Shown here: in pieces, positions 1,384 through 39,785 of the stretch
Layout: each line of letters opens with the position of its first letter
Numbering within the stretch: position 1 is the stretch's first letter
Source: Candidatus Falkowbacteria bacterium
GTDB lineage: Bacteria > Patescibacteriota > Patescibacteriia > Patescibacteriales > UBA12075
Direction: 5' to 3'
Assembly (NCBI GenBank): GCA_003514005.1
Contig: DOSJ01000019.1
Span: 22,868-86,867, forward strand
DNA: 64,000 nt
Notes under the pieces: generated by a model
Databases searched by the model: none
What the model saw: the letters and a program-made list of their open reading frames with translations, nothing else
Told to the model about the DNA's origin: nothing
Program-made: the position numbers and the translations under genes

Positions 1384-2304
1384 TCACTCAATAACTCCAA
1401 ATAATCTAATCCAATCGTCAACCGAAAGCTCCTGCGCCCGGATCTTCTCATCAAAACCGCATTCTTTAAACCATTCCCCCACTTTTTCTTGGCCAATCTT
1501 ATAACAACCCGCCAAATTATTCTTAAGCATTTTCCTTCGTGAACCAAACCCAAACTTAACCATCCGAAAAAATGCTTTATTATCAATTTCTAACTTCTTA
1601 CTTCTAACTTCTAGCTTAATTACCGCACTCTCCACCGCCGGCACCGGCCAAAAAGCCACCCTCGGCACATATCCCACAATTTCCGCGTCTGCATAAAACT
1701 GCACCGAAACCGCCAAAAGACTCATTTTACCTGGTTTGGCAACAATTCTCTCAGCCACCTCTTTTTGGAGCATCAGGGTCATTGTCTCTGGTTTATTTTC
1801 GGATTCAAGAAATTTGCGGAGGAAGATTGAGGTGATGTTGTAGGGAAGGTTGGCAACGACTTTGTAATTTTTAATTTTTAATTTTAAATTTTTATTCAAT
1901 TTTAAATTTTCAATTTCTAATTTATCTTTTTTTTCAGATTCATTTATAATTAAATCATTAAAAATTGAATTAAAATTTAAAATTTCAAATTTAAAATTAA
2001 AATCAAGAATATTCTCATTAACAACCTCTACATTCTCGACTTTATCAAACCTCCGTCCAAGCAATCCTGCCAAAACGTCGTCAAGCTCCACCGCCACCAC
2101 TCTCCCCGCCTTCTCTGCCAATTTCTCTGTCAAAAACCCAAGCCCCGGCCCCACTTCCAAAACCGTATCATCTTTATTAATCCTTGCAACCTCAACAATC
2201 CGATCATAAATATTTTCCTCAATTAAAAAATTCTGCCCTTTTGAACGGGAAGGAATGATATTGTTTTTTTTACAAATTTCCTCTGTTTTTTGGAATAGGT
2301 TCAT
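1384..2304 (-). CDS. rsmA: 16S rRNA (adenine1518/1519-N6)-dimethyltransferase RsmA/KsgA
   Basis: Motifs SRSKGQNFL, VLEVGPGLGFLT and VANLPYNITS. ATG 2304 lies 1 nt after the TGA (2308-2306) of the upstream ORF; the track start 2328 would overlap that ORF. Carries a low-complexity insert. Confidence 0.85.
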   Translation of the reverse strand: MNLFQKTEEICKKNNIIPSRSKGQNFLIEENIYDRIVEVARINKDDTVLEVGPGLGFLTEKLAEKAGRVVAVELDDVLAGLLGRRFDKVENVEVVNENILDFNFKFEILNFNSIFNDLIINESEKKDKLEIENLKLNKNLKLKIKNYKVVANLPYNITSIFLRKFLESENKPETMTLMLQKEVAERIVAKPGKMSLLAVSVQFYADAEIVGYVPRVAFWPVPAVESAVIKLEVRSKKLEIDNKAFFRMVKFGFGSRRKMLKNNLAGCYKIGQEKVGEWFKECGFDEKIRAQELSVDDWIRLFGVIE

Positions 2305-2305
2305 A

Positions 2306-5068
2306 TCAATATTTTCCATATATATCATAACAATCCCTATTAATTCTATCTACAGACCAACAAGTCCCACGCGCATAACAATTCCAATGTTCAGGATGTT
2401 TGCTTATGTTTGTTTTTCTTTGAATACAAACATATTCATCATTATTTGGCCACAGATTATATGTATAGTATGTTTTACAATTAGCCGTATCTTTGTCCCA
2501 ATAAAATGACTCTGGACAAGTGCAATCTCCACAATATGTTTTTACTCCACATATTTGATGATAATCACAGACATAACCAAGTGAAGCACAGGTATCAGGA
2601 CAAAATACTACACAATTTCCATTCTTGCAAACATTTCCACCTGTGCAAGGTGTATTTTCCGCTTTATTCGTATGACTTACAATTCCGCTCGCGCAAGTAT
2701 CAATCGTGCACTCATTGCCATCATCCGCGCTTAATGTACCGGCAACTCCGATTTGAGTGCCGACACAGCTGCCAGTTTGAGTAAATGTATCACCAACACA
2801 AACCGTATTTGCCAACGGACTCCAGGTGTTTCCACTGCAACATTCAATGGTGCCACCACAACCATCATTATACGAAGATTTTATTTCAGTTACGGAAAAA
2901 TTCGCACAAGTAGCTGGCACACAGCAAGCAGCGCTTTGCGTATTCGCCCCTTGGCAAGTTTTACCACCACAGACAGGGGCGGAACAAGTTCGCGTTTGTG
3001 TGGTAAAACCATTACCATAGGTGCCGCTGTTCAGTTTGCAAACTCCGTCTACCCAGGCTGACCAAACACCATCAGTCGGATTACAACAAGCATTATTGTC
3101 ATACTGACAATTATCTTTTGTACAGGCAAGCGTACCAAATTTAAATCCAAATTTCTGACATGTTTGTTCGTTCAGCTTGGTACCATCGCATTCTTCACTT
3201 TGTCCATTACCATTCGGTTTCTGAATAATGCCATCACCGCAAAATGTATTTTTACAATTATCATAGCAGGTGTCATTGTTTTTTCCATTCTTACCGTCAT
3301 CACATTCTTCCTGTGGTGCTTCTTTGTTTTTGTTTCCGCAATACCCACCATTATATATACAGCTAGCGTCACAACCATACTGCTTATTAATATTCGAATC
3401 AATCGCATTGTTTGCGATATTGTCAATTGTATCACAGCTCTCAAAGCCATCATCCTTCGGCCCGCCTTTCTTTTCGGTATTGGGTTTTTGGGTTTTACCG
3501 TCACCGCAGTAGTTACTTACGGTTAGACCGTATTTAACATGTTCACTAGTCGCGTTATCCGCAGATACAGCGGTTAATTCAATATTGTATGATCCAGCGG
3601 AATTGATGTCTGGCGTACCATATATTTCTGCTGTTGCTGTTAATCCCGTGCTAATCTGGCGAATGCTCATCCCAGTGGGCAAATTTTTTACGTTAATGAC
3701 TATAACACTATCAAAAAGATGTGTAGCGGTAATTGTGCAGATAGGATAAACACTATTTACTCTGACACTGCGAGTGCAATTTAGAGGCTCGCTTATCTTT
3801 GGTTTTGGTTTGGATACTGTCAGATAAAAATTCTTGCTAGTTCTGCCGCCCCTACCATCATCGATAACGACTGTAAAATCATATTTACCTGGGTCGCCGG
3901 CTTTGGGTGAATAGAGCATCTTTTGTTTGTAAACCGAGGCGGCTTTGAGTATTGGCATATTAATGGCTTCCCAGCCGATCCAGACAGGAGTAACTACAAA
4001 TAGGCTATTCAATGGAAAAAAACTCCAGGTTAGGGAGTCGCCATCGGGATCAATTGCTTCGATATATGCTTTGTATTCGGTTTGAGAATAATTCAATGGA
4101 AAATTGTAGCTGGTAAATTCCGGGGCGCGATTTGGAATTGCTGTGCCGGAACAGCCAACAATATTTACGTATGCTGTTTCCATATTTGCGCACAGGCGGT
4201 ATTTACTGCCATTGGGGCTGGCTGTATACAAAAAAACATTGGCACCGATTGGCAATGTCACAGTTGGCAAAATATCAACACCCGAGGCGGGTGAGGTTAT
4301 GCTGGCAAATTCTTTTTTGTTTTCATCCCAGCAGGTAATCTTATTAAATCGATCATCTTTGCAATCACCAATATTATTTATCGGGTCAACGAACAGATTC
4401 ATTTCCAAGCTTTGCGCAAGCACTTTTTGCCAGCTGGGCCAGACAGATATGGTTATTTGGGGCAGATATGAGCCGGATTTTAGATTGGGATATGTGCCGT
4501 TTACTGTTTTTTGTTCTTCCAGTCTTTGTCTCATATTGGCAATGTCCGAAAGTCTTTTTACATCCCTAACTATCTTGGCTTTGTCGCTGTTGCAGTATTC
4601 CCCGCTTTGGCATTCTGAATCTAGTACACAAACCAACCCAGACACAGAGTCCGGCTTGATACAATTACCCTCTGTATTGATATTGGTATTAAATTTCCAT
4701 TGCTTGATGATACGACCAAAGATATCGATCGTAGCTTGTTCCACTTCTTGATTATATGAAATGATATAGATATTGGTCTGAAGCGTATTGCCGACAATAT
4801 TGGCGGCATTGATATATATTGTGCGTCCATCACGAACGGCTTCATAGCCGTCTACCAAGAGGGCTTGCGGAGAACCAGTGAATTTTTGGAATTTGTACCA
4901 ATCGTTTGGCGAAAAATGTTCCGGGTTTGAGAGAATACGGATGGCAATGGCGTCTTTTGAGAGGGCATGAGTGGGAATTGGGGTGCAAAATATTATTATG
5001 GCATAGCAAAAAAACAATATGAAAAATATTGCTATAAAATTTTTTTGATTATGCAAATTTGCAAGCAT
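2306..5068 (-). CDS. large secreted Cys-rich surface protein (putative adhesin)
   Basis: 920-aa ORF with N-terminal signal/anchor IAIFFILFFCYAIIIFC. Two Ig/cadherin-like (He_PIG-type) segments (AIDPDGDSLTWSF; GTPDINSAGSYNIELTAVSADN). C-terminal third has CGDG..EECDG repeats and a WSAW..TQTRTC..CGGKTC module. Confidence 0.75.
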   Translation of the reverse strand: MLANLHNQKNFIAIFFILFFCYAIIIFCTPIPTHALSKDAIAIRILSNPEHFSPNDWYKFQKFTGSPQALLVDGYEAVRDGRTIYINAANIVGNTLQTNIYIISYNQEVEQATIDIFGRIIKQWKFNTNINTEGNCIKPDSVSGLVCVLDSECQSGEYCNSDKAKIVRDVKRLSDIANMRQRLEEQKTVNGTYPNLKSGSYLPQITISVWPSWQKVLAQSLEMNLFVDPINNIGDCKDDRFNKITCWDENKKEFASITSPASGVDILPTVTLPIGANVFLYTASPNGSKYRLCANMETAYVNIVGCSGTAIPNRAPEFTSYNFPLNYSQTEYKAYIEAIDPDGDSLTWSFFPLNSLFVVTPVWIGWEAINMPILKAASVYKQKMLYSPKAGDPGKYDFTVVIDDGRGGRTSKNFYLTVSKPKPKISEPLNCTRSVRVNSVYPICTITATHLFDSVIVINVKNLPTGMSIRQISTGLTATAEIYGTPDINSAGSYNIELTAVSADNATSEHVKYGLTVSNYCGDGKTQKPNTEKKGGPKDDGFESCDTIDNIANNAIDSNINKQYGCDASCIYNGGYCGNKNKEAPQEECDDGKNGKNNDTCYDNCKNTFCGDGIIQKPNGNGQSEECDGTKLNEQTCQKFGFKFGTLACTKDNCQYDNNACCNPTDGVWSAWVDGVCKLNSGTYGNGFTTQTRTCSAPVCGGKTCQGANTQSAACCVPATCANFSVTEIKSSYNDGCGGTIECCSGNTWSPLANTVCVGDTFTQTGSCVGTQIGVAGTLSADDGNECTIDTCASGIVSHTNKAENTPCTGGNVCKNGNCVVFCPDTCASLGYVCDYHQICGVKTYCGDCTCPESFYWDKDTANCKTYYTYNLWPNNDEYVCIQRKTNISKHPEHWNCYARGTCWSVDRINRDCYDIYGKY

Positions 5069-5710: not shown

Positions 5711-6526
5711 ATGCGAAAAATATTTATTTTAGTTACTTTTTTCATTTTTTCTTTAATATTCTGTAAAAACATCACTTTTGCCGCCGATAATCTGGCTGAA
5801 AAACTTTCCGGCCGTATTTTACTTCAAACCGAAAAAAACGGCGAAGCTTGGTATGTTAACCCGATTGATTTAAAAAAATATTATCTCAGTCGCCCCGAAG
5901 ATGCTTTCGCGCTAATGCGTAAACTCGGTATTGGCATAAAAAATTCTGATCTGGAAAAAATTCCAAACGATAAAAATTTTACCAACAAAAATCTTGGTCG
6001 GATTTTCTTGCAAGTGGAAAGCAAAGGCGAGGCTTGGTACCTTGATCCTATCAGTAAAAATCGTTATTATTTAGCACGACCAACCGATGCCTTGTCTATC
6101 ATGCGCCGATTTAGCCTTGGCATTACAAACGCGGATCTGGGTAAAATCGAAACCGGCCTGATCAATATATCCGCTCCAATCATAACCCCATCCAATCCGC
6201 CTGTCTGCACCGATTGTGGCAATACCAATGCGGATGCGGTCATGTCCGGCGCGGCCAGCGCGATCCGCGCAAATAACAAAGAAAAAGCCGCCAGCTATTT
6301 TATTCCGGAAATGAAAAAAGCCATCGAATACACGATGGACTTTTTGGACGCTGATGGACGCTTGACGCTTGGGAATATTTTGTCCGGCTCAATACTAAGC
6401 GATTCAACCGACACAAAAAAAACATATTCCAATGAAGTCTATTTCTCTTTGGGCGGATACAAAGTTCCGTTAAAATTTTATGTCGAGAAACAGGCAGATG
6501 GCAAATGGCTACTAAGCAATCTTTAA
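5711..6526 (+). CDS. secreted protein with two tandem ~52-aa repeats
   Basis: 271-aa ORF with signal peptide ILVTFFIFSLIFCKNITFA. Repeats GRI(L/F)LQ.E..GEAWY..P....YYL.RP.DA...MR...LGI.N.DL.KI span nt 5810-6148. Confidence 0.6.
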   Translation: MRKIFILVTFFIFSLIFCKNITFAADNLAEKLSGRILLQTEKNGEAWYVNPIDLKKYYLSRPEDAFALMRKLGIGIKNSDLEKIPNDKNFTNKNLGRIFLQVESKGEAWYLDPISKNRYYLARPTDALSIMRRFSLGITNADLGKIETGLINISAPIITPSNPPVCTDCGNTNADAVMSGAASAIRANNKEKAASYFIPEMKKAIEYTMDFLDADGRLTLGNILSGSILSDSTDTKKTYSNEVYFSLGGYKVPLKFYVEKQADGKWLLSNL

Positions 6527-6574: not shown

Positions 6575-9148
6575 TCATTTCACCACCACATTCACAAGCT
6601 TCCCTCCCACAAAAATAACTTTCATAATCTCTTTATCATCAATAAATTTTTTCACCTTCTCGCTCTCTAGCGCGATTTTTTTTGCGTCTTCTTCGGATAT
6701 ATTTGCATCAACTTCGATAGTATCACGCAGTTTTCCGTTCACCTGGATAACCATCTGAATCTTTTCGTCTTTGATCAATTCAGGGTCATACTTTGGCCAT
6801 GACTGTTTGAAAATTGATTCAGAATTTCCTAGTCCGCTCCAAATCTCCTCGGTAATATGCGGCGCAAACGGCGCCAAAATAATCAAAAATTTTTCATACG
6901 TATCTCGGCTAATCTCTTTTTCTTTTTCCAGGGCATTAACCAATATCATCATCGCACTAATCGCCGTATTAAACTTAAACTCCAAAATATCCTCTCCAAC
7001 CTTCTTAATGGTTTTATGCAGAAGATTTAATATCGCACTTGTCCCGGCTCCCCCACCGTGTTGCATGTTGCGTGTTGCGTGTTGCATGTTATATATTCTC
7101 TCAAGAAATTTCCTCGCCCCAACCAACCCATTCGTGCTCCAAGCAACCGACTGTGAAAACGGCCCCATAAACATTTCGTAAACACGCAAAGCGTCCGCGC
7201 CGTATTTTTCTACGATATCATTAGGATTAATCACGTTACCCCAACGCTTCGACATCTTGCGCCCGTCTTCGGCCATAATCAAACCGACATGCTGTAAACG
7301 CGTAAACGGCTCTTCGTAGTTGACCGCTCCGATATCAAATAAAAATTTGTGCCAAAAACGCGCGTATATCAAATGACGAGTGGCATGCTCGGCACCGCCG
7401 ACATAAAAATCAACCGGTGACCAGTATTTGTCTTTCTTGATATCGATTAACGCGTTATTATTTTTCGGATCAATAAACCTAAGATAATACCAACTGGATC
7501 CGGCCCACTGCGGCATAGTATTTGTTTCACGCTTGCCCGCACCGCCGCATTTCGGACATTTCGTATTCACCCATTCCGGAATAGTGGCCAAAGGCGACTC
7601 GCCAGTTCCACTTGGTTCATAATGCTCAACATCCGGTAAGCGTAACGGCAATTCCGATTCCGGCACAGGTATCGCACCGCATTTTTCGCAATGCACAATC
7701 GGTATCGGTTCGCCCCAATATCTCTGCCGCGAAAATACCCAATCTTTGATTTTGTAATTCACAGCTCTCTTGCCCAATCCTTTTTCCGTAAGCCAAGCAA
7801 TCATTTTCTCTTTGGCTTCGATAGCATAATACCCATTTAAAAATCCTGAATCAAATAACCATCCATAATCCGTAATAGCATGGGACGGATCTTTATTTAT
7901 GTCTTTTTGGGCTTGTTGTTTTAACAAAGATAATAATTCTTCATCTTCAATTTTATTTCCGCTATTAACACTAGTGGGGTTAACTGTTCTTCGTGTTAAT
8001 GTTTTTTCACTCTCATTCCAAAATTCAAGATAGCTATGAAGAATTGGTTTAATTTTAATATTATACTTCTTCGCAAACTCAAAATCTCTCTCATCATGCG
8101 CCGGCACAGCCATTATTGCCCCTGTTCCATAACCCATCATGACATAATCAGCAACAAAAATAGGCAACTCTTCTCCATTCACCGGATTGATAGCAACCAA
8201 ACCCTCAATCTTAACCCCGGTCTTTTCTTTATTAAGCTCCGTCCGTTCCATGTCCGACTTCGCCCCGGCTTTTTTCATATATTCTTCAACTTCATTAAAA
8301 TTGGAAATCGACAATCGGAAATCGGAAATTAACGGATGTTCTGGCGCAACCACAAAATAAGTCGCCCCAAATAGCGTATCCGGTCGAGTGGTGAATATTT
8401 CTTGTTCAATTTTCTTTTCATTCGGAAATCGACAATCGACAATCGCAAATTTCACAATCGCTCCCGTAGACTTCCCAATCCAATTCCTCTGCATCTCTTT
8501 GATCGAATGCTCCCAATCCGGCAATTTGTCGAGATCCGCAAGCAAGCGATCGGCATAATCCGTAATGCGCAGCACCCATTGCCGCATCGGTTTGCGCTCC
8601 ACTTCGGAATCACAGCGTTCACAACGTCCACCTTCTAGGTCTTCCATGGATAAACCGGTCTTGCAAGAAGGACACCAGATAATCGGCTCAAAAGATTCAA
8701 AAGCTAACCCGCGCTCAAACATTTTCAAAAACGCCCACTGCGTCCATTTATAAAATTCCGGATCAGTCGTATTTATCTCGCGCTCCCAATCATAAGAAAA
8801 ACCGATTTTAAGCAGCTGTTTTTTAAAAGTATCAATATTCTTTGCGGTCGCAATACGTGGATGAACCTTGTGCTTAAGGGCGTAATTCTCGGTCGGCAAC
8901 CCGAACGCATCCCAGCCCATAGGATGAAGAACATTGTAACCCTGCATTTTTTTCAAACGCGCAAAAATATCGGTCGCGATATAACCTTTCGGATGCCCGA
9001 CATGCAACCCTTCACCCGACGGATACGGAAACATATCCAAAATAAAATATTTCGGTTTTGTCGTGTCTTCGCTGGTTTTATACAGCCCGTCTTTCTCCCA
9101 TTTCTCCTGCCATTTTTTTTCTACTTCTTTGTGATTATAGTTTAACAT
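6575..9148 (-). CDS. leuS: leucine--tRNA ligase
   Basis: 857 aa. HIGH-type motif (GLHVGHPKGY), KMSKRWGN (KMSKS), FTTRPDTLFGATY and Zn-finger Cys pairs. Contains three word-repeat insertions. Confidence 0.95.
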   Translation of the reverse strand: MLNYNHKEVEKKWQEKWEKDGLYKTSEDTTKPKYFILDMFPYPSGEGLHVGHPKGYIATDIFARLKKMQGYNVLHPMGWDAFGLPTENYALKHKVHPRIATAKNIDTFKKQLLKIGFSYDWEREINTTDPEFYKWTQWAFLKMFERGLAFESFEPIIWCPSCKTGLSMEDLEGGRCERCDSEVERKPMRQWVLRITDYADRLLADLDKLPDWEHSIKEMQRNWIGKSTGAIVKFAIVDCRFPNEKKIEQEIFTTRPDTLFGATYFVVAPEHPLISDFRLSISNFNEVEEYMKKAGAKSDMERTELNKEKTGVKIEGLVAINPVNGEELPIFVADYVMMGYGTGAIMAVPAHDERDFEFAKKYNIKIKPILHSYLEFWNESEKTLTRRTVNPTSVNSGNKIEDEELLSLLKQQAQKDINKDPSHAITDYGWLFDSGFLNGYYAIEAKEKMIAWLTEKGLGKRAVNYKIKDWVFSRQRYWGEPIPIVHCEKCGAIPVPESELPLRLPDVEHYEPSGTGESPLATIPEWVNTKCPKCGGAGKRETNTMPQWAGSSWYYLRFIDPKNNNALIDIKKDKYWSPVDFYVGGAEHATRHLIYARFWHKFLFDIGAVNYEEPFTRLQHVGLIMAEDGRKMSKRWGNVINPNDIVEKYGADALRVYEMFMGPFSQSVAWSTNGLVGARKFLERIYNMQHATRNMQHGGGAGTSAILNLLHKTIKKVGEDILEFKFNTAISAMMILVNALEKEKEISRDTYEKFLIILAPFAPHITEEIWSGLGNSESIFKQSWPKYDPELIKDEKIQMVIQVNGKLRDTIEVDANISEEDAKKIALESEKVKKFIDDKEIMKVIFVGGKLVNVVVK

Positions 9149-9766: not shown

Positions 9767-10573
9767 TCATAATTCAATCCCAACCGGACAATGATCCGAC
9801 CCAAGCACTTTATCCAAAATATACGCGCTTTTAATTTTTTTCATTAAACTATCTGATACGCAAAAATAATCAATCCGCCAACCAACATTATTTCGCCGTG
9901 CGCCGGCGCGATAGCTCCACCAGGAATATTGGATTTTATTCGGATTAAGTTCACGGAAAGTGTCTTTGAAACCGGAAACCAAAAACCTATTCATCCATTC
10001 ACGTTCACGCGGATGAAACCCCGGGTTGCCGATATTTTCTTTAGGCCGCGCCAAATCGATTTCATTATGCGCGACATTAAAATCGCCCGTAACAATTAAC
10101 GGTTTGGTTTTTTCCAATTTTTTAAAATATTTTAACAATTTATCATTAAAATCAATTTTAAAATCCAAGCGCGACAATTCATGATTAGCATTGGGAAAAT
10201 AAATATTGGCCAAATAAAATTTGCCGAGGTCGATTATCTGAACACGCCCTTCATTGTCCCAATCCAATCTATCCAAATCCACAACTTTATAACTTTCAAC
10301 TTTCAAACTTTTTACTTTGTTACTTTCAACTTTCAAACTTTTTACTAAAACCGCCGTCCCCGAATATCCCGGCCGCTGTGCCGAATTCCAAAAAATATCA
10401 TAACCGATTTTTTCTGGATGCAAAATCTCGTCCAACTCTTTCTTGCGCGCCACCTCAGAAATTTTAATCTCCTGCAAACACAAAACATCCGGCTCTTCTT
10501 TTTTCAAAAAACCGAGAAGATCTTTTTTAATTACAGCGCGCAGGCCGTTTATATTCCAAGAGATTATTTTCAT
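9767..10573 (-). CDS. xth: exodeoxyribonuclease III
   Basis: Motifs ISWNINGLRA, LCLQEIK, GYSGTAV and SDHCPV. ATG 10573 (MKIISWN) preferred over the TTG at 10582. Contains a 30-bp tandem duplication. Confidence 0.9.
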   Translation of the reverse strand: MKIISWNINGLRAVIKKDLLGFLKKEEPDVLCLQEIKISEVARKKELDEILHPEKIGYDIFWNSAQRPGYSGTAVLVKSLKVESNKVKSLKVESYKVVDLDRLDWDNEGRVQIIDLGKFYLANIYFPNANHELSRLDFKIDFNDKLLKYFKKLEKTKPLIVTGDFNVAHNEIDLARPKENIGNPGFHPREREWMNRFLVSGFKDTFRELNPNKIQYSWWSYRAGARRNNVGWRIDYFCVSDSLMKKIKSAYILDKVLGSDHCPVGIEL

Positions 10574-10618
10574 ATAATACAAATCTTAAATCGAAAATCT
10601 GAAATCGAAAATCGAAAA

Positions 10619-12337
10619 TCACCAACTCCCTCCCCCACCCCCACCAAATCCACCACCCGAGTCACCTCCGCTAAAACCACTTCCGCCAGACGATGCCGTA
10701 GACGCCATAATAGTATTAGTACTAGATTGAAAACCGCCCAAGCTATTTGTAAAAGCCAGCACGGAAAAATTTCCCATATTCGCATCGCTATACCAAGATG
10801 GATTTGTCTGATAAATATTTTCAAATTGCTTTGCCCAGGCCGCTTCAACACCCAATACCATCGCAAAAGGCAATAATTTTTCAAAAATTTGCGGATTTTT
10901 TTCTGGGGCATTGTGAAAATTAATTCTGTCCTTTTCCGCAATATTCAAATACGTTTTTAAGCCAAGGATATGCTCGCGCGCCAACACGCCTTTCTCTGAT
11001 TTTTTCGGCATAAAATTACCAAAAATCATAATAAGTAATCCTGATAACGCGAAACTAACATAACCGATTATTCCAAAAAATTGTCCAAATAAAAATCCCA
11101 AAAACACAATTACTATGCCAAATACAAAATATTTTATCCGGACAGAATTCGGATTGGAAAGAAAATAACCTTTTTCAACAACCGATTGATATACCTTTTT
11201 TGTTATTAATTGCAAATCTTTAAAAAACTTATTTTTTAAATCCGACAACTTGATTTTGTTGTCATTGCCAAATAAAGCCTGAACTAAAGTTTTTTGATAT
11301 TCGTTTAAACCGGCGCTTTCATTTTTCAATTTTGTTAATTCATAATCATCGGATTGTAAAATATTTTTTTCTTGGATTTTCTCAATTTTCAAATAACCGC
11401 GTACAGCCAAATTTATAATCTCGGCCGAAATATCTTTCTGCTGTGCCTTTTCGTCGACAATCGTTCCGATCTCGGCCGGACTTAAATTATCCGGCGCGTC
11501 GAATTGAGCGACAATAGTCCCTCGACCTTTTGGATCACGTCCATTTTTTTTCCATGAAATAAATAAAAAATAAAACACAAAAAACGGCAATAAAATAATA
11601 TAGTTATCTTTGGCAATCTCAAAAAACGTTTTGAATACTGATGGTTTTTTTACGACCCCTTTCGGCAGTCCGATAACAACGGTAACGCCCTCATGCGCGC
11701 GCAAACTGTCATCGGTAAATACCAGCTTGTCAACCATGTTTTCCGCGCTAAAATTCAAACGGCTGGAAACGCATTCTGCCGTACTGCCGGATACTCCAGT
11801 GTAGCAGATAGAGCGCAAAGATTCTTTGTTGACGCTTTCAGGCAAGGTTACCGTTGTCTTTGATCGGCTGATCGGCGTGATCCAGTTGTTGCCGGTCGCG
11901 TTCCAATAAAGCTCGTCATAATCGGCAAAATAATTGATAGCCCGTTCCACTTTATAGTGCAGTACGTATCGCATCGCTCCGGTAACAAAAACATCAGCAT
12001 CGCCAATCTTGAGACGCTTGTCATTGCCTTTGCTTTCAATCTTAAACTCAACCGCTTTTCCCTCGCCGTCTGTAACGGAAAAATCCGAATAGCGCAGTTT
12101 AAAATTCCCGCCATTATTTTTGTACTTGTACGGCAAATCGCGAAAGATGCCGTGCTTCTGTTCCGTACCAAAATCATAGGCAATGCTTTCGTCAACTTCA
12201 ATCGATGCGTCTTTGTTGATTTTGATATCTACTGTAAAATCATTAATCTGCTCCTCGGCAAATGCCGGCGATGCAAAAAATAAACAAGCTGATATTAATA
12301 GGCAAACTTGAATAAATATTTTTTTTATTTTTGACAT
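10619..12337 (-). CDS. DUF2207-type membrane protein
   Basis: 572 aa. Signal peptide, extracytoplasmic N-domain (KHGIFRDLP), TM helices and a Gly-rich tail SGGSGFSGGDSGGGFGGGGGGSW typical of DUF2207. Confidence 0.8.
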   Translation of the reverse strand: MSKIKKIFIQVCLLISACLFFASPAFAEEQINDFTVDIKINKDASIEVDESIAYDFGTEQKHGIFRDLPYKYKNNGGNFKLRYSDFSVTDGEGKAVEFKIESKGNDKRLKIGDADVFVTGAMRYVLHYKVERAINYFADYDELYWNATGNNWITPISRSKTTVTLPESVNKESLRSICYTGVSGSTAECVSSRLNFSAENMVDKLVFTDDSLRAHEGVTVVIGLPKGVVKKPSVFKTFFEIAKDNYIILLPFFVFYFLFISWKKNGRDPKGRGTIVAQFDAPDNLSPAEIGTIVDEKAQQKDISAEIINLAVRGYLKIEKIQEKNILQSDDYELTKLKNESAGLNEYQKTLVQALFGNDNKIKLSDLKNKFFKDLQLITKKVYQSVVEKGYFLSNPNSVRIKYFVFGIVIVFLGFLFGQFFGIIGYVSFALSGLLIMIFGNFMPKKSEKGVLAREHILGLKTYLNIAEKDRINFHNAPEKNPQIFEKLLPFAMVLGVEAAWAKQFENIYQTNPSWYSDANMGNFSVLAFTNSLGGFQSSTNTIMASTASSGGSGFSGGDSGGGFGGGGGGSW

Positions 12338-12380
12338 AGGGTATAATTTTTAATTTGTAATATAATATACTTAAAAATCT

Positions 12381-12520
12381 TTGTCATTCCCGCGTAGGCG
12401 GGAATCTTGGTGTCAAAATAACAAAATATTTCTACTATAAAGTTTGTTATAAAAACACCTTTTTAAATTTCTTGTTTGTTTATTCTATTACCGAGATTCC
12501 CGCTTTCGCGGGAATGACAA
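12381..12520. mobile_element. MITE-like element, GTCATTCCCGCG hairpin-end family (copy A)
   Basis: Ends ttgtcattcccgcgtaggcgggaatc (12381-12406) and gattcccgctttcgcgggaatgacaa (12495-12520) are inverted. Each end is itself an 8-bp hairpin. Interior is homologous to copy B at 30779-30913. Confidence 0.7.
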
Positions 12521-12527
12521 AAGACAC

Positions 12528-12725: not shown

Positions 12726-13405
12726 TGAACAATCCCTTAAAACCCTGGTATAAAAAATGGTGGGGCGTATTGGCATTATTAGCGCTTTTGTTTTTTATAA
12801 GCATATTTTTTGCTTTTGTTTTTTTGGTTATCAATTCCCGTGATACTGCGCCTAGCTCTGGCATCAATCCTTTGTTAACGCAAAAAGTTCCGGCGCTGGC
12901 GATCGGTACGGAAAAAAACTATTGGCTCGGAAGCGCAAATCCAAAAATTACGATTGTCGAGTTTGGCGATTTTGCCTGTTCCTACTGTCAAAAATCGTTT
13001 TCCAAAATCCGAGAAATCAGCCAATTATACAAAAACGATATCAAATACATTTACCGCGACTATCCTGTCGTATCCGATTATTCCGCCAAGCTGGCCTTGG
13101 CCGCGCGCTGTGCCGGCGAACAAGGACTTTTTTGGATAATGCATGACAAGTTGTACATCAACCAAGGCATTAGTACGGATCAAGAAATATTAAATCATTT
13201 CAAACAAACCGGAGGCAATGAAGCAAAATTTTCCACCTGTTACGACGCAAACAAATATCTTCCCGAAATCGAAAAAGACTTGAGCGACGGACAATCTCTT
13301 AACATCACCGGCACGCCGACGTGGTTTGTGAATGGACAGAGGCTCGAGGGAGATGTGCCGTATGAGTATTTTATTAACCTAATTTCTAACATATTAGGTA
13401 CTTAG
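12725..13405 (+). CDS. DsbA/thioredoxin-fold thiol:disulfide oxidoreductase, membrane-anchored
   Basis: 226 aa with an N-terminal TM helix. CxxC active site in FGDFACSYCQ and a DsbA-like C-terminal part (ITGTPTWFVNG). Confidence 0.75.
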   Translation: MNNPLKPWYKKWWGVLALLALLFFISIFFAFVFLVINSRDTAPSSGINPLLTQKVPALAIGTEKNYWLGSANPKITIVEFGDFACSYCQKSFSKIREISQLYKNDIKYIYRDYPVVSDYSAKLALAARCAGEQGLFWIMHDKLYINQGISTDQEILNHFKQTGGNEAKFSTCYDANKYLPEIEKDLSDGQSLNITGTPTWFVNGQRLEGDVPYEYFINLISNILGT

Positions 13406-13488
13406 GTGCTTGGGTACTTAGGGGTTTGGTTTATTACAATTTTACCTCAACCCTAAGCACCCAAGCACCTAAGTACCTAAGTACCTAA
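13394..13488. repeat. intergenic hairpin, CCTAAGTA word family
   Basis: ttaggtacttaggtgcttgggtacttagggg vs ccctaagcacccaagcacctaagtacctaa: about 30 bp with 1 mismatch. Left arm contains the dsbA-like stop; right arm ends 4 nt before the porG ATG. Confidence 0.75.
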
Positions 13489-14034: not shown

Positions 14035-14060
14035 ACCCTATTTTTGATTAATAGAACAAA

Positions 14061-14128
14061 GTTAATTAGTTGATTAGTTAATTAGGGTATAAATATTTAC
14101 ATCCTAATTAACTAATCAACTAATTAAC
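14061..14128. repeat. hairpin between porG and porD, TTAATTAG word family
   Basis: gttaattagttgattagttaattagg (14061-14086) is the exact reverse complement of cctaattaactaatcaactaattaac (14103-14128). Confidence 0.8.
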
Positions 14129-14144
14129 TAATTAACTAACAAAT

Positions 14145-14408: not shown

Positions 14409-14902
14409 CTTTTTTGTCATCTCGACCGAGCGAAGCGAGCGGAGAGATCTATAATACATCAATAAAGCACGCGCAATGTTCAATAAAAAAAGTTATAATT
14501 TCTATATTTACATTTTAAGCAATTACGACCGCAACTGTCTATACGTTGGATTTTGCAACGATATCGCCAGAAGAATTATCGAACACACACATAGCTTCGG
14601 ATGCGAATACTCAAAAAAGTACAAAACCTTTGATTTATTATATTATGAACATTATCAATATGTTAACGAAGCAATAGCCAGAGAGAAACAAATCAAAAGA
14701 TGGGGAAGAGATAAAAAAATAGCTTTAATAAAAACTAAAAATCCGGAATTAAAAAAATTAACCAAAAATTATTCAATGATTTTAGACTTTCTGAAAAAGA
14801 TATCTCTGAAATAGCTGATATTTTAAAAGAAAAATATTCAGCTAGGGATTAAAGTATTACAGATCTCTCCACTCGCTTCGCTCGGTCGAGATGACAAAAA
14901 AG
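14409..14902. mobile_element. GIY-YIG ORF bracketed by 42-bp terminal inverted repeats (element E)
   Basis: cttttttgtcatctcgaccgagcgaagcgagcggagagatct (14409-14450) matches the reverse complement of 14861-14902 at 41/42 positions. Inserted between porD and porA. Confidence 0.7.
14476..14814 (+). CDS. GIY-YIG nuclease family protein (small stand-alone URI/COG2827 type)
   Basis: 112 aa with NFYIYIL..LYVGFCNDIARRIIEH..YYE...AIAREKQIKRW.RDKK. About 45 percent identical by eye to ORF 16292-16594. Confidence 0.85.
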   Translation: MFNKKSYNFYIYILSNYDRNCLYVGFCNDIARRIIEHTHSFGCEYSKKYKTFDLLYYEHYQYVNEAIAREKQIKRWGRDKKIALIKTKNPELKKLTKNYSMILDFLKKISLK

Positions 14903-16203: not shown

Positions 16204-16707
16204 TTGTCATTTCGCAGCGAAGCGGAGAAATCCCTTATCCATGAATAATCCTCCTATTAGTTTTTTTAGCAAATACTAAAAAAACCATATTATGGCTACA
16301 AAGAAAGAATATAATTTTTATATCTACATATTGGCAAGCGACACAGGAACGTTATATATCGGTTTTACAAATAATCTTGAAAGACGAATCAAAGAACATA
16401 AAAGTGGAATAATAAAAGGATTCACTCAAAAATATGGTTGCAATAAATTAGTATATTATGAACATTATACTTATGTAAACAATACGCTTGAACGTGAAAA
16501 AGAATTGAAAAAATGGAATAGAAATAAAAAGCAAGATTTAATAAAATCAATGAATCCACACTGGAAAGATATTTCAATCGAATTGTTTACATAATTTTTT
16601 GTCATTCCGTAGCAAGATGAGAAAACCTTTAAACAAGAATTGCGTACAAAATGATCAATTCATTATCAACCGTTAAGGGATCTCTCCGCTTCGCTACGAG
16701 ATGACAA
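16204..16707. mobile_element. GIY-YIG ORF with 34-bp inverted ends plus nested miniature copy (element F)
   Basis: Left end ttgtcatttcgcagcgaagcggagaaatccctta (16204-16237) vs right end 16674-16707: 31/34 as reverse complement. An extra left-end-like copy lies at 16599-16631, just after the ORF stop. Confidence 0.65.
16292..16594 (+). CDS. GIY-YIG nuclease family protein (URI/COG2827 type)
   Basis: 100 aa with NFYIYILAS..GTLYIGFTNNLERRIKEHK..YYE...LEREKELKKWNRNKK..NPHWKD. Confidence 0.85.
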   Translation: MATKKEYNFYIYILASDTGTLYIGFTNNLERRIKEHKSGIIKGFTQKYGCNKLVYYEHYTYVNNTLEREKELKKWNRNKKQDLIKSMNPHWKDISIELFT

Positions 16708-19403: not shown

Positions 19404-19622
19404 ATGATTTATTTTACAAAATACTCCGAACAAAAATTTGAAATCCTGAACAAGTACCAGGTGTTTTTTCGTAAGGAAGAGATTTGTGACGCGGTTTTAA
19501 ATCCGGACAAAATTTCAAAAAAAGGGAAATATTTGTCAGCGCGGAAAGACGGGATTAAGGTTGTTTATGATAAGAAGGCGGGTGTTATTCGCGTTATTAC
19601 TTTTTATCCAATTAAAATATAA
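19404..19622 (+). CDS. small DUF4258-like protein (putative toxin)
   Basis: 72 aa. Resembles the DUF4258 pattern (..NPDKISKKGKYLSARK...KVVYDKKAGVIRVITFYP) and is followed by a DUF2283-like ORF. Weak assignment. Confidence 0.4.
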   Translation: MIYFTKYSEQKFEILNKYQVFFRKEEICDAVLNPDKISKKGKYLSARKDGIKVVYDKKAGVIRVITFYPIKI

Positions 19623-19624
19623 TA

Positions 19625-19708
19625 CGAATACTACAAATAACATTCAAATACTACAAAAATTTTTCAATTCAACATTTTGTAGTATTTGAATATCATTTGT
19701 AGCATTTG
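19625..19708. repeat. intergenic hairpin, TACTACAAA word family
   Basis: cgaatactacaaataacattcaaatactacaaaa vs ttttgtagtatttgaatatcatttgtagcatt. The same words occur at 45563-45640 and 49455-49490. Confidence 0.7.
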
Positions 19709-19732
19709 AATTATAAGTTTTTACACAAAAAC

Positions 19733-19954
19733 ATGCTCTACGACCCCGAAGCCAACATAATATCCCTGCCAATCGGCAAAGGAAAGATTACTCATACGAG
19801 TGAATTCGGTAATTTTATTATCCACCTATCCGACGCGAAAAAACCGATACTGATCGAGATTTTAGATGCGTCAAAGTTTATGGGGCAGTTTGATAAGATT
19901 AAGAATGTTGGGGATATTAAAAAAATGTTACCGACAATCAACCAATTGAATTAA
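19733..19954 (+). CDS. DUF2283-like protein (putative antitoxin partner)
   Basis: MLYDPEANIISLPIGKGKI..IIHLSDAKKPILIEILDASKF fits DUF2283. ATG 19733 preferred; the track TTG start 19706 lies inside the hairpin. Confidence 0.6.
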   Translation: MLYDPEANIISLPIGKGKITHTSEFGNFIIHLSDAKKPILIEILDASKFMGQFDKIKNVGDIKKMLPTINQLN

Positions 19955-19970
19955 AATTTTTTTAAAAAAA

Positions 19971-20036
19971 GTTAATTAGTTAATTAGTGATTAGGAGCAT
20001 AATCCACTCGGCCTAATCACTAATTAACTAATCAAC
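19971..20036. repeat. hairpin upstream of porB, TTAATTAG word family
   Basis: gttaattagttaattagtgattagg vs cctaatcactaattaactaatcaac, a near-perfect 25-bp inverted repeat. Confidence 0.75.
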
Positions 20037-20995: not shown

Positions 20996-21042
20996 GTTAA
21001 TTAGTAATTAGTTAATTAGGGAATAAAAAATAATCCTCTTTT

Positions 21043-21153
21043 TTGTCATCTCGCAGCGAAGCGGAGAGATCCCTTAACGATTAATTATATATAGATTATT
21101 TTATTTTTTGAACCATGTTTAAGAGATTCCTCCGCTTCGCTACGGAATGACAA
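21043..21153. mobile_element. ORF-less miniature of the GIY-YIG-element ends (element G)
   Basis: ttgtcatctcgcagcgaagcggagagatccctta (21043-21076) and taagagattcctccgcttcgctacggaatgacaa (21120-21153) are inverted (about 28/34), separated by 43 nt. Confidence 0.65.
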
Positions 21154-21170
21154 AAAAAGTGAAATAACAA

Positions 21171-24200: not shown

Positions 24201-25245
24201 GGTTAATAACCCTGCGATACAGATCGTTCAAATCGCTGGTCGCAAATCGTCCGCCGTCCAAAGCCACCATCGGTCGCAAATCCGGAGGGATAACCGGCAG
24301 AACCGTCAAAATCATCCATTCCGGCTTGATATCATTCGCGCGCAAGCTCTTGCAAAGCTTTAAGCGGCGCATCAATTTTTCTTTTTTAGAATCAATCGCT
24401 TCGATTAATTCGTTTTCCAGCCGAGTAATGGTCTTTTCGATATCAATCTTTTCCAAAAGCTTGCGAATCGCTTCCGCGCCGATACCAGCTTCAAAAATAT
24501 GCCCGTACTTAAGACTAAGATTCTGATAAGCGGTTTCCGAAATTATCAAAAGTGGTTTTAATTCTTTTAATTCACGCTGGGCGGTTTCCAAAGCATCCTG
24601 TAAATTCTCCATCTTCTCTTCTTTTACCTTGTCCAAAGCCTCGATATCCGCGGCAATTTTGGCATCCGCTTCGATTGCCGACATGCCTTCGTGCATCAAT
24701 TTTGCCTTGTGGTCTTTGATTGCCCGTGTTTGATTGGCAAAATCAGATTCGATTGATTTTTTCTTCTGTTTGAATTCATTCTTGATCTGTTCAACTGTCG
24801 CGTTTTTCAGATCTTCATCAACCGCGGTAACAATAAAGCTGGCAAAATAAACCACTTTTTCCAAAGCTTGCATGGACAAATCCAAAATCAACCCGACCTT
24901 CGAGGACAAACCGCGCAAAAACCAGATATGCGTGCATGGCGATTCCAAAACAATGTGTCCCATGCGTTCGCGGCGCACTTGACTGCGGGTTACTTCTACT
25001 CCGCATTTGTCGCAAATAATGCCTTTATAGCGGATTTTTTTATATTTTCCACAATAACATTCCCAGTCTTTTGAGGGACCGAAAATTTTCTCGCAGAACA
25101 AGCCGTCTTTTTCCGGCTTTTGCGTGCGATAATTGATGGTTTCCGGACGGACGACATGTCCATACGACCATTTTGTTATGACCTCCGGTGAAGCAAGCTT
25201 CAGCTTGATCGCATCAAAATCCGTTGTCTTTATCGGGTTAAGCAT
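21262..25245 (-). CDS. rpoC: DNA-directed RNA polymerase subunit beta prime
   Basis: 1327 aa with a Zn-binding CYCGKYKKIRYKGIICDKCG, the catalytic NADFDGDQMAVH, and trigger-loop and bridge-helix regions. Confidence 0.97.
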   Translation of the reverse strand: MLNPIKTTDFDAIKLKLASPEVITKWSYGHVVRPETINYRTQKPEKDGLFCEKIFGPSKDWECYCGKYKKIRYKGIICDKCGVEVTRSQVRRERMGHIVLESPCTHIWFLRGLSSKVGLILDLSMQALEKVVYFASFIVTAVDEDLKNATVEQIKNEFKQKKKSIESDFANQTRAIKDHKAKLMHEGMSAIEADAKIAADIEALDKVKEEKMENLQDALETAQRELKELKPLLIISETAYQNLSLKYGHIFEAGIGAEAIRKLLEKIDIEKTITRLENELIEAIDSKKEKLMRRLKLCKSLRANDIKPEWMILTVLPVIPPDLRPMVALDGGRFATSDLNDLYRRVINRNNRLRQLIDLNAPEVIQRNEKRMLQEAVDALIDNSARHGKTVIASTGQKRMLKSLADSLKGKQGRFRQNLLGKRIDYSGRSVIVVNPKLKLDQCGLPKLMAIELFKPFIISKLIEKEVVHNVRSASRFIESGADIVWDILEKIIDGAYVMLNRAPTLHRLGIQAFKPILIEGKAIQIHPLVCSAFNADFDGDQMAVHVPLTKEAVDEAKNIMLSAKNLLKPATGDPVVAPGQDIVWGTYYITNEVKSSIEEKNIKRFSSGEEARLAYESKVIKLHDPIFVKLENIGVTKTTVGRIIFNDILPEKLRFVNHVVDKGKLKNLVKLCYRYYGPKQTGEFLDDLKEKSFSYITKSGLSWGMGDLPRFEEKDVLISDTQEMVEKIQDQYDEGLLTDSERYAKVIELWSGVKERVTDICKKGLPKDGPVFSMIDSGARGSWAQLTQILGMKGLVTSPSGDIIELPVKGNFKRGFDVLEYFISSHGVRKGLSDTALRTANAGYLTRRLVDVSQDIIITDDDCGDTEGLVFTKIDSENMGTTLMDRILGRYLADDLKNVKGKVLVPKGTLMVEDTIESIQDEEVNEACIRSVLSCKLDRGVCTHCYGWDLGHNKEVSLGTAVGIIAAQSIGEPGTQLTMRTFHSGGVAGGEDITQGLPRVEEIFECRPPKRKAFISDVDGLVSIEAGQRTIEDETGKTTVSNPQVKILKINYDGIDVDKYYFAETIKEAQQKAASDKKNSGIKTKGKKSAEAFEPKIEVKEGDKVSAGTRLFTAGDIVVIANNGGVVEIDEKSVKIKVETKKVKEFIVPKGMSIMVQAGEEVKKGDQLTDGSMDLQQLFTLKDRLSTQRYIIKEIQNVYSSQGQPLNDKHIEIIAKQMFSRFYISETIDSDLLPGEIVEGSVLARARRKNNKEIKATRLLMGITKASLSTDSFLSAASFQETARVLIESAVTGKIDYLEGLKENVIIGRLIPAGTGYKGNRERKIY

Positions 25246-25256
25246 ATATTTTATTA

Positions 25257-25329
25257 AATTCTAATTTCTAATTTCTAAAGCCTAAATTTATGATTAAATT
25301 TAGAAATTAGAAATTAGAAATTAGAAATT
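25257..25329. repeat. rpoB-rpoC intergenic hairpin, TTAGAAA word family
   Basis: aattctaatttctaatttctaaagcctaaattt vs aaatttagaaattagaaattagaaattagaaat. The right arm is 4 units of a 7-nt period. Confidence 0.8.
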
Positions 25330-30938: not shown

Positions 30939-31976
30939 TCACTTTATCTTCCTTCTCACCCACCTAAGCCAATTATACATCTTATACAAAACCGAATCAA
31001 ACACCGCATCAAAAGTCCCCGGATAGTCAACTTCTTCTCCGCCATAACCTTTTTTAAACCGCGTAACTCCCGGCCATTTACTCTCGTCAATGCCAAAAAA
31101 ATCATAATATCGACAACCACGCGCCTTTGCTTCGCGAATACTCTGCCACTGCAAAGCATAAGTCGCCATCAAATTCCGATATTCATTTGAAGAAGCGCCA
31201 TGCACATAGGTCACGGTATCGCCAAAAAACGCAACAATATTTCCGGCAATAATTTTGTTTTGATATTTTGCAATAAATAATTTAATAGACAAACCTGATA
31301 TTGAATATTGATTATTGGAAATTGAATTATTATTGGATATTGAATGATTATTGAGTATTGAATATTGAACATTAAAAAGCATTTTCCAATAATACTCCTT
31401 ACCATGCAAGCGAAACCCATCACGCTCATTCGTTTCCCGCATAATCTCCCAAAACTCTTCAAAATCCTCTTTCTTAGCCTCACTAATTTCTATCCCCTTC
31501 TTTTCTGTCAAACGAATATTATAACGAGTCTTCGGATGCATCTGTTTCAATATTTCATCTTCTGATTTTGAAATATCAAGTATCAATGTCTTTTTCGGCT
31601 GCAAAGAAATTGTTTCTATAATTTTATACTTCTTACTTCTAACTTCTAACTTCACAACCGGTTCAAAACGCAAAAATATACATTTTTCTTTTTTCGCAAT
31701 TTTTTTTATCTCCAAAAACAAATCGGAAATCGCAAATCGCAAATCGCAAATCCCCACCCTTGGCGCATAAAAATACCCCAACCCCAAAAACAATCTTTTT
31801 CTAATCAAAGTAACCACGCCAACCAACTCTCCGTTTTCCTCAATCCCAAACCGAAAAACCTTATTCCCAGCCGCTTCCTGAAATTCTCCCCACTCGAAAG
31901 ACTGCAAAAATTGGCTTTGTTTTTGTTTAGTTAAATAATTATTTAATTGTTCTTTAGTTATATCTATTAATCTCAT
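30939..31976 (-). CDS. FemAB-family peptidoglycan interpeptide-bridge aminoacyltransferase
   Basis: 345 aa with FLQSFEWGEFQ, HGASSNEYRNLMATYALQW and RYYDFFGI, typical of the FemAB/FemX family. Three word-repeat insertions. Confidence 0.75.
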   Translation of the reverse strand: MRLIDITKEQLNNYLTKQKQSQFLQSFEWGEFQEAAGNKVFRFGIEENGELVGVVTLIRKRLFLGLGYFYAPRVGICDLRFAISDLFLEIKKIAKKEKCIFLRFEPVVKLEVRSKKYKIIETISLQPKKTLILDISKSEDEILKQMHPKTRYNIRLTEKKGIEISEAKKEDFEEFWEIMRETNERDGFRLHGKEYYWKMLFNVQYSILNNHSISNNNSISNNQYSISGLSIKLFIAKYQNKIIAGNIVAFFGDTVTYVHGASSNEYRNLMATYALQWQSIREAKARGCRYYDFFGIDESKWPGVTRFKKGYGGEEVDYPGTFDAVFDSVLYKMYNWLRWVRRKIK

Positions 31977-39780: not shown

Positions 39781-39785
39781 TAAAA

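Follow-up and report, generated by a model that had tools for sequence, protein, structure and literature searches.

Introduction

Tandem arrays of seven-nucleotide units are a known feature of prokaryotic genomes. Seven nucleotides is the most abundant unit length of long simple sequence repeats (SSRs) in most surveyed prokaryotic genomes, as far as Mrazek 2007 is quoted in PMC4679880, and these heptanucleotide long SSRs include the cyanobacterial short tandemly repeated repetitive (STRR) sequences, as far as Mrazek et al. 2007 and Mazel et al. 1990 are quoted in PMC4679880 and PMC4692102. TAACTGA direct repeats of marine Beggiatoaceae, cyanobacteria, and Bacteroidetes occur in 2-6 copies and in hundreds of sets per genome (PMC4679880), and the GGGNATC / GGGGAYT heptamers of Xanthomonas and Nostoc, with about four units preferred, are concentrated within 50 bp of the ends of open reading frames (ORFs) or overlap stop codons (PMC4692102). 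The amino-acid tandem repeats of Borgs have in-ORF units that are all divisible by three (PMC9879509). Here we describe heptamer arrays in a 64,000-nt stretch (contig DOSJ01000019.1, positions 22,868 to 86,867; "the window") of a groundwater Candidatus Falkowbacteria genome of the candidate phyla radiation (CPR), where they are translated within leuS (encoding leucyl-tRNA synthetase, LeuRS), a FemAB-family gene, and other conserved ORFs and also occupy intergenic spacers.

Two further repeat systems are relevant to arrays inside genes. Phase-variable contingency SSRs of Haemophilus and Neisseria turn genes on and off through frameshifts or altered promoter spacing, and they differ from isolate to isolate. 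Rickettsia palindromic elements (RPE), reportedly described by Ogata and co-workers in 2000, are said to be 100-150 bp long, to share a conserved family sequence, and to lie in frame in protein genes. A literature search for heptamer or tandem repeats in CPR or Patescibacteria found no report, which is not proof of absence. Heptanucleotide SSRs are already known; their abundance in a CPR lineage and their translation at recurrent sites of housekeeping proteins are the newly described part.

Results

Five period-7 arrays in leuS, a FemAB-family gene, and a spacer

A preliminary description of the window had reported a stop-free heptamer word in leuS (twice), the FemAB-family gene, and the spacer between the DUF2207 protein gene and xth, together with a separate word in leuS. 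All five arrays were found at the coordinates given for the plus-strand letters, the spacer array at 10588-10620, and their minus-strand (coding) translations matched those reported (Table 1). Tandem Repeats Finder (TRF) assigned period 7 to all five sites with 2.7-4.9 copies, for example, at LeuRS site 1 (8298-8329, 4.6 copies), LeuRS site 3 (7059-7090, 4.6 copies, 92%), and FemAB site A (31719-31752, 4.9 copies, 92%), and the unit-to-unit identity at 7-nt spacing was 80-100%. The pentamer AATCG at exact 7-nt spacing formed runs of 3, 3, 2, and 4 at four of the sites, on the plus strand only; the chance expectation from its 149 occurrences in 64 kb is approximately 0.35 pairs and 0.001 triples at this spacing.

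The stretch 8303-8330 encodes ISDFRLSISNF (LeuRS aa 274-284), the stretch 8423-8460 encodes IVKFAIVDCRFP (aa 231-242), and the peptides encoded by the arrays include ISDFRLSISNFNEVEEYMK and NMQHATR. Because the unit is 7 nt long, the same words are found in spacers, and the peptides are those of a heptamer read in three phases, the arrays originate at the DNA level. Two details of the preliminary description needed correction. The region 8423-8460 had been treated as one array, but its perfect core covers only 2.7 units (8427-8445), and the promoter-proximal ~15 nt are the codons of the conserved GA.VKF strand, with a 1-nt phase break. The word had also been described as free of stop codons. 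Perfect tandems of CGATTTC, CGATTGT, CGATTTG, CGATTTT, and GCAACAY indeed contain no stop on either strand, but in the actual sequence the promoter-proximal ~15 nt of 8423-8460 include a single TGA, in a frame that is not used.

The leuS and spacer arrays folded no better than their shuffles (z of +0.56, +0.21, -0.16, and -0.42), and no inverted partner arm of the noted arrays was found in the window. An Rfam scan of the window gave no family near the arrays; its sole match was tRNA-Arg.

A dense population of heptamer arrays in the window

Arrays were called over the 64 kb of the genome represented by the window, using TRF plus exact-run and tolerant scoring, and dinucleotide-preserving shuffles served as the null. 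Exact period-7 runs numbered 12, compared with 0.0 in the shuffles. Tolerant scoring yielded 21 arrays of period 7 (0.17 expected) and 10 of period 8 (0.07 expected), while periods 4-6 and 12 yielded none and periods 9-11 two each. The period-7 arrays were divided between ORFs (10 arrays, 0.18 per kb) and intergenic DNA (11 arrays, 1.27 per kb), corresponding to an approximately 7-fold higher density in the latter, and some of them abutted or overlapped stop codons (10619, 33107, 53448, 49521, and 32464). All 10 period-8 arrays were intergenic, and most were paired as inverted repeats able to form hairpins. The 21-26 arrays of the window sort into approximately six word families (Table 1). A dense heptanucleotide SSR population, usually with 3-5 units per array, typifies this Falkowbacteria genome and several other sampled Patescibacteria.

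Lineage distribution

The same periodicity was visible in proteins across the CPR. Periodic segments with a lag of seven residues were counted 29 times in 120 CPR LeuRS (0-4 for the other lags between 3 and 12), 24 times in the window FemAB and 120 homologues (0-4 for the other lags), and 31 times in the window KsgA and 119 homologues (0-7 for the other lags). These segments were concentrated where the window has its arrays; of the 24 in FemAB, 10 were located at site A and 12 at site B. In 57 non-CPR LeuRS, no lag-7 segment was found, and other lags were not higher. At the DNA level, the window contained 328 period-7 arrays per Mb. The corresponding density was 85 per Mb for 11 leuS loci of Patescibacteria and 3.2 per Mb for 70 non-CPR loci, in which periods 6 and 9 predominate. 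Some Patescibacteria loci had no period-7 array.

LeuRS sites compared with relatives and structure

The window LeuRS is identical to those of GW2011_GWC2_38_22, GWE1_38_31, and GWF2_38_1205, and at least 24 contigs, belonging to several assemblies, encode this 857-aa protein. The window was also identical over 19 kb to two same-species assemblies (L082 and L083), except for 23 extra NN-containing nucleotides in the xth repeat of L083. The closest non-identical LeuRS (P0002) shares 74% identity, and its DNA (locus L081) was used as the nearest comparison. The window LeuRS matched the Thermus thermophilus LeuRS 1H3N with an E value of 1e-222. The sites were placed on an AlphaFold2 (AF2) model (mean predicted local distance difference test score, pLDDT, of 69) by secondary structure and pLDDT only.

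Heptamer arrays were found at all three LeuRS sites of L081, and the three sites behaved differently (one word conserved, one concertedly changed, and one unrelated). At site 1, 32 of 35 nucleotides were identical and the periodicity was retained (ATTTCTG ATTTACG ATTTTCG ATTTCCA ATTTTAA in L081), which exceeds the gene average of 74%. At site 2, L081 has five units of TGTCGAG/TGTCGAA, compared with TGTCGAT in the core units of the window; this constant difference at one position of the unit suggests a concerted change. At site 3, the word was TKTCGAA (five units) in L081 and AACAYGC in the window, with DNA identity at the random level, and the window array was longer by exactly 7 codons (21 nt, three units). 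Different words were also observed in more distant relatives: GAATCTC at site 1 and CGGGCTC at site 3 in L073, AAAGTCA at site 3 in L002, and GAAGTTN, encoding VKFEVRSKKSEV, at site 2 in L205. L002 carries an additional AAAAGTC array in leuS (5843-5874), at approximately aa 366 as estimated from coordinates. The DNA periodicity at the LeuRS sites of the window, L081, L073, and L002 was 7 nt and not only 21 nt.

The preliminary description had placed the leuS arrays in variable linkers and had named equally long, alignable segments in array-less orthologues as the observation that would speak against insertion. This was the situation at site 1 and not at sites 2 and 3. Site 1 aligned in all 25 orthologues of a 26-sequence alignment, which were shorter by 0-1 residue, and L002, L003, L005, and L036, in which it shows no DNA periodicity, were just 1 aa shorter; thus, the site 1 array adds no net length. 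It forms part of a helix-loop-helix in the editing domain (H272-276 / H284-295, pLDDT of 87-93), is 1 aa longer than in 1H3N, and shows a 7-residue duplication (I.N[YF]...I.N[YF]) with at least three lag-7 identities in 55 of 117 CPR homologues. The site 2 array supplies the turn and the strand before it in a long beta-hairpin with which the editing domain begins (E227-238, turn 239-246, E247-253; pLDDT of ~80-87). Between the GA.v.F strand and FTTRPDT, relatives have 13 to more than 24 aa (21 aa in the window), and the window segment exceeds that of 1H3N by 6 aa. Site 3 is a variable linker, 9 aa shorter than in 1H3N, that covers the end of helix 672-691 and a low-confidence loop preceding the anticodon-binding domain (pLDDT below 50 at 696-701).

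Many Patescibacteria LeuRS (P0003, P0004, P0010, P0013, P0022, P0023, and others) are 930-1260 aa long and have additional precomputed Pfam domains (NUDIX PF00293, alpha/beta-hydrolase PF00561/PF12697, and PF04266), which are absent from the window LeuRS.

FemAB, KsgA, Xth, and the spacer

FemAB site A lies in a region of variable length. The array adds no net length here, as the window segment has 30 aa and the family mode is 31 aa; the insertion proposed for this gene was therefore not supported. The syntenic relative L204 (FemAB identity of 53%) carries CGATTGC (2.7 units, encoding RLPIADF) at the same site. With this array and those at the three LeuRS sites of L081, the arrays do not represent a discrete element of one genome. 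The intergenic array occupies nearly all of the 45 nt from the DUF2207 stop codon (10619-10621) to the xth start codon (ATG, 10573). The corresponding spacer in L081 has 14 nt and no array, in agreement with the array being extra sequence.

An in-ORF repeat of xth corresponds to a 14-aa insertion relative to the L081 protein. In the re-assembly DNVU01000012.1 (L083, about 8782-8826), 23 extra nucleotides including NN are present at this repeat, and xth is called as two ORFs. This extra copy is most likely a re-assembly artefact, the alternative being copy-number heterogeneity, and it thus provides no usable evidence on slippage.

The ksgA gene contains an inverted pair of heptamer arrays whose 59-nt arms form a hairpin (-29.6 kcal/mol, z of -5.0). 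The same protein loop in L081 ksgA (19890-19975) contains a hairpin of GAATGTC/GACATTC (-32 kcal/mol, z of -5.0). The window and L081 share both array sites, but the words there are unrelated (NFKFEILNFN in the window and NVECRIANCE in L081 at one site, KLEVRSKKL and MSSVECRVSN at the other). The length of this loop ranges from 27 to 66 aa across CPR homologues. In several KsgA homologues, the peptide halves resemble mutual reverse-complement translations, for example, RIRN...IPNS in P0273. The structure is either a palindromic module that resembles RPE and is translated or, possibly, an RNA or DNA hairpin conserved within the ORF.

Stop codons, frame, and word specificity

The freedom from stops noted for CGATTTC cannot be a general rule because GAAGTTA, the commonest word in ORFs, contains TAG when perfectly repeated and survives by point changes (e.g., GAAGTTA to GAAGTAA). 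The in-ORF GAAGTTA arrays (ksgA, femAB, and U32 peptidase) each have exactly one open frame on the sense strand, which is the frame that the gene reads. Two GAAGTTA copies are intergenic; all three sense-strand frames of one are closed, and the other retains a single open frame. Arrays of four CGATTNN units were found on at least 120 metagenome contigs, with a GC content of 0.37-0.72 among the matches listed, and a word specific to this genome or to CPR was thereby ruled out.

Table 1. Coordinates and content of the genes, arrays, and word families in the window
Feature	Position	Strand	Content or basis
leuS (LeuRS, 857 aa)	6575..9148	-	ORF; homologues with LeuRS Pfam domains; three heptamer arrays
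LeuRS site 1	8296..8330	-	AATTTCC GATTTCC GATTGTC GATTTCC AATTTTA; (L)ISDFRLSISNF, aa 273-284
LeuRS site 2	8423..8460	-	core 8427-8445 CGATTGT x2.7, CGATTTC flank, 15-nt upstream echo GCGATTGTG; encodes (A)IVKFAIVDCRFP
LeuRS site 3	7058..7090	-	AACATGC AACACGC AACACGC AACATGC AACA; NMQHATRNMQH(G), aa 687-698
FemAB-family gene	30939..31976	-	Pfam FemAB 3.3e-55; heptamer arrays 31720-31753, 31627-31653, 31298-31373
FemAB site A	31720..31753	-	GATTTGC x3, GATTTCC, GATTT; (GI)CDLRFAISDL, aa 75-86
FemAB site B	31627..31653	-	GAAGTTA family; VKLEVRSKKY; stop codon of the word avoided in frame
Spacer array (DUF2207/xth intergenic)	10581..10620	-	+ strand AAATCGA AAATCTG AAATCGA AAATCGA AAATC
xth, exonuclease III-type (Exo_endo_phos)	9767-10573	-	Pfam
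xth in-ORF repeat	10284..10346	-	TRF 30 nt x2.1, GAAAGTT-type units
DUF2207 protein gene	10619-12337	-	Pfam
ksgA inverted pair of heptamer arrays (translated hairpin module)	1862..2002	-	repeat search, folding, orthologue alignment; ksgA = 1384-2328 (-)
Word family CGATT[TG][CTG]			3 in ORFs, 1 in spacer
Word family GAAGTTA (peptides like EVRSKKL)			ksgA, femAB, U32 peptidase x2, 3' of ruvA and dnaK stops
Word family GAAATTA			intergenic inverted pairs
Word family TTCAATA			femAB and one intergenic pair
Word family AAAATTA / AATTTTA			ksgA
Word family AACAYGC			leuS

Intergenic hairpins and other features of the window

Long intergenic hairpins, both arms of which are 7- or 8-nt tandem arrays, were found at 25256-25329, 14060-14129, 13394-13488, 46577-46682, 51497-51602, 39785-39854, 33049-33123, 58781-58844, 44716-44813, 53369-53453, and 19618-19715. 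These hairpins may be terminators or processing sites made of repeat units. A folding energy of -30.7 kcal/mol (z of -8.35) was obtained for the spacer between the large ORFs 25347-28772 and 21262-25245, for which synteny with L204 indicates rpoB and rpoC as the probable identities. The arrays 33092-33122, 53436-53459, 49497-49521, and 32421-32465 overlap or directly trail the stop codons of U32 peptidase, GrpE, DnaK, and RuvA, and in U32 and GrpE the array units themselves encode the C-terminal residues and the stop codons. The only RNA gene of the window, tRNA-Arg(CCG) (39708-39780), has TTAGAAA/AATTTCT arrays of opposite orientation on either side (39666-39696 and 39786-39854).

A separate palindromic family is present in three copies (12380-12521, 30780-30913, and 21039-21157), with a GC-rich core (TGTCATTCCCGCGAAGGCGGGAATC...) and arms of 39-47 nt that are 81-90% complementary. 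This family looks like repetitive extragenic palindromes or miniature inverted-repeat transposable elements and has no relation to the heptamer arrays. Two small ORFs with GIY-YIG domains (14476-14814 and 16292-16594, according to Pfam of the identical locus L082) lie amid genes for pyruvate:ferredoxin oxidoreductase subunits and may be homing-endonuclease-like genes.

Discussion

Origin of the arrays

The arrays are probably heptanucleotide SSRs that arose by slippage and were then filtered according to reading frame, stop codons, and what the protein structure tolerates. In this view, 7-nt units would be duplicated when replication slips or when the polymerase switches template over a short range, and most of the resulting arrays would survive in intergenic DNA. 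Within an ORF, an array would persist if its net length keeps the frame (three units correspond to 21 nt, or 7 codons), if no in-frame stop is left, either through a stop-free word such as CGATTTC or through a mutated unit, and only where the site tolerates an arbitrary peptide. A surviving array would then be read in all three heptamer phases and yield a 7-residue-periodic peptide (e.g., ISDFRLS-ISNF). An established array would remain a slippage hotspot and evolve in concert, so that orthologous sites could come to carry conserved, uniformly shifted, or entirely different words. The 7-codon difference at LeuRS site 3 and the 14-aa insert in xth agree with the three-unit frame filter. While the periodicity, statistics, positions, orthologue comparison, and lineage distribution were observed directly, slippage as the generator and neutrality of the peptides are what we infer from them. 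The encoded peptides probably have no specific function of their own, and older patches such as LeuRS site 1 would now be a fixed, structured part of the protein.

Several observations weigh against slippage as the whole explanation. Length differences are not always multiples of 21 nt (-3 aa at site 2 and +20 aa in ksgA). Within-species polymorphism was not seen in the at least 24 contigs with the same LeuRS or over the 19 kb of identical sequence, bar the ambiguous NN-containing xth copy, and the in-ORF arrays are thus stable on that time scale and are not contingency loci. The same word at unlinked sites is not predicted by pure local slippage, and such sharing was pronounced: 42 pairs of consensus words in the window were within one mismatch, compared with 6.7 expected (maximum of 23 in 300 simulations), and close pairs made up a fraction of 0.21 of the pairs from one genome, 0.07 of those from different genomes, and 0.03 of random heptamer pairs. 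All five L081 arrays scoring at least 10, located in leuS and ksgA, belong to one family (CGA[AG]T[GT]T), and GAAGTTA recurs in ORFs of different genomes, a recurrence that cannot be accounted for solely by selection for benign words. The sharing of words within genomes, the single family in L081, and the recurrent GAAGTTA suggest some copying between arrays. Such copying is central to templated spread, a possible but doubtful alternative in which arrays would be seeded or overwritten from other arrays by ectopic template switching, gene conversion, or a selfish process comparable to RPE, with genome-specific words colonising permissive loops and spacers; it generalises the inserted word of the preliminary description. 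The significant clustering of words in the window, their threefold higher similarity within than between genomes, and the uniform L081 arrays fit this alternative, as do the unrelated words at LeuRS site 3 and the two ksgA sites despite flanks of ~74% identity, the presence of stop-containing GAAGTTA in ORFs of several genes and genomes, and the palindromic ksgA module inserted in frame. However, neither element boundaries nor target-site duplications nor a conserved core outside the repeats were seen, no candidate enzyme was identified, LeuRS site 1 and FemAB site A show no insertion, and the variation between units within arrays fits decay plus slippage. Furthermore, hairpin partner arms partly inflate the sharing of words, and arrays with a CGATT core in many unrelated metagenome contigs suggest that such words arise independently with ease. 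A far-reaching form of this alternative, an active sequence-templated process in Patescibacteria that writes or rewrites heptamer arrays by ectopic template switching or a dedicated enzyme, is unlikely. If true, it would overwrite the same permissive loops (LeuRS, FemAB, KsgA, U32 peptidase, and Xth) with genome-specific words, would also build hairpin modules, even in ORFs (ksgA), and would represent a lineage-specific mode of protein-loop and terminator evolution and not passive microsatellite drift.

It is improbable that the arrays are selected DNA or RNA cis-elements (sites for OB-fold or cold-shock-like proteins, pause or processing sites, or expression spacers), with the in-ORF copies kept for that function and the peptide as a by-product. 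The retention of arrays with changing words at shared sites of deeply diverged genomes, the strong intergenic hairpins at gene ends (z of -8.35), and the ksgA in-ORF hairpin of two genomes, with fully different yet mutually complementary arms, are in line with such a function, and so is the ratio of one CspB molecule per heptamer of direct repeats, as far as it is cited in PMC4679880. However, the noted arrays do not fold and have neither a partner arm nor an Rfam match, their words differ so widely between genomes that no single binding specificity is conserved, and many relatives have no arrays at these sites and have shorter loops. An explanation with no DNA-level process, in which the arrays are by-products of protein heptad or beta-hairpin periodicity, codon bias, or chance, is very improbable indeed. 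It could appeal to the I.N[YF]...I.N[YF] pattern in 55 of 117 orthologues at site 1 and to the structured state of sites 1 and 2 in the AF2 model. Protein periodicity, however, predicts a period of 21 nt and not the observed 7 nt at 80-100% identity, identical words occur in non-coding spacers, shuffles yield only 0-0.17 arrays, and 57 non-CPR LeuRS contain no lag-7 segment. Chance, codon bias, and protein heptads were discarded in view of the 7-nt period, the shuffled sequences, and the non-CPR LeuRS. A coiled-coil heptad was rejected as well, as the AF2 model gives a beta-hairpin at site 2, a helix-loop-helix at site 1, and a helix end with a loop at site 3.

Significance

A 7-nt unit, which is not divisible by three and would be expected to be excluded from ORFs, here feeds 7-residue-periodic patches into essential enzymes of very small genomes, at sites shared across a large bacterial radiation. 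Part of the lineage-specific insertions and variable loops of CPR proteins can thereby be traced to a concrete origin at the DNA level, and different words at one site in related genomes serve as a marker of concerted evolution. Slippage-prone arrays and their possible collapse in assembly would also affect the alignment, annotation, and assembly of CPR sequences. If the sharing of words reflects copying between arrays, it would point to a mode of repair or recombination that has not been described, in organisms whose sets of DNA-repair genes are minimal.

Comparison with known repeat systems

Several features of long SSRs are found here, namely tandem units, an excess over composition, dispersal with recurrent words (over 64 kb), and enrichment in non-coding DNA. 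Array length differed between species (three units at site 3 and 14 aa in xth), and no variation was seen within the species apart from the NN-containing extra copy in L083. As in STRR and other long SSRs, few 7-nt tandem units per array, many dispersed arrays, and a limited set of recurring words per genome were observed, with intergenic enrichment near ORF ends, a lineage-sporadic distribution, and slippage as the proposed generator. The window differs from these systems in its AT-rich, small CPR host, in the translation of 10 of 21 arrays inside conserved housekeeping ORFs, and in the recurrence of arrays at the same protein sites across the radiation.

The TAACTGA repeats are likewise heptamer tandems, often beside start or stop codons, and a few of them lie in ORFs, where the translatable strand would give the 7-residue repeat LSVISYQ. 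However, that system has one dominant word with forward-strand stops in all frames, and the great majority of its copies lie between genes, ahead of start codons, whereas several word families were found here, many of their arrays within essential enzymes. The GGGNATC repeats share the genome-wide occurrence of heptamer arrays, sometimes as inverted pairs, but they are G-rich quadruplex formers under-represented in ORFs, while the words here are AT-rich and without G-tracts, and the noted arrays give no structure signal. Like the repeats of Borgs, the arrays are rapidly evolving tandem repeats that add peptide segments without breaking ORFs; a Borg-type repeat was nevertheless rejected, because the unit here is 7 nt, not divisible by three, and it is read in all three phases and its words recur.

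Contingency SSRs also consist of short tandem units, the copy number of which shifts by slippage. The arrays described here were not assigned to contingency loci because they reside in essential housekeeping genes and did not vary in length over at least 24 contigs or, except for the NN-containing xth copy, over the 19 kb identical in L082 and L083. RPE resemble the arrays in being repetitive DNA translated in essential ORFs, and they are said to occupy permissive surface positions. The noted arrays, unlike RPE, are direct repeats of 20-38 nt without palindromy or a conserved core, and the leuS and spacer arrays were rejected as RPE-like palindromes on the lack of a fold signal and of an inverted partner. 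With regard to discrete insertion of the RPE type, LeuRS site 1 and FemAB site A showed no indel, whereas extra length was present at LeuRS sites 2 and 3 and in the spacer, but LeuRS orthologues carry arrays at the same sites. Only the ksgA module has an RPE-like architecture.

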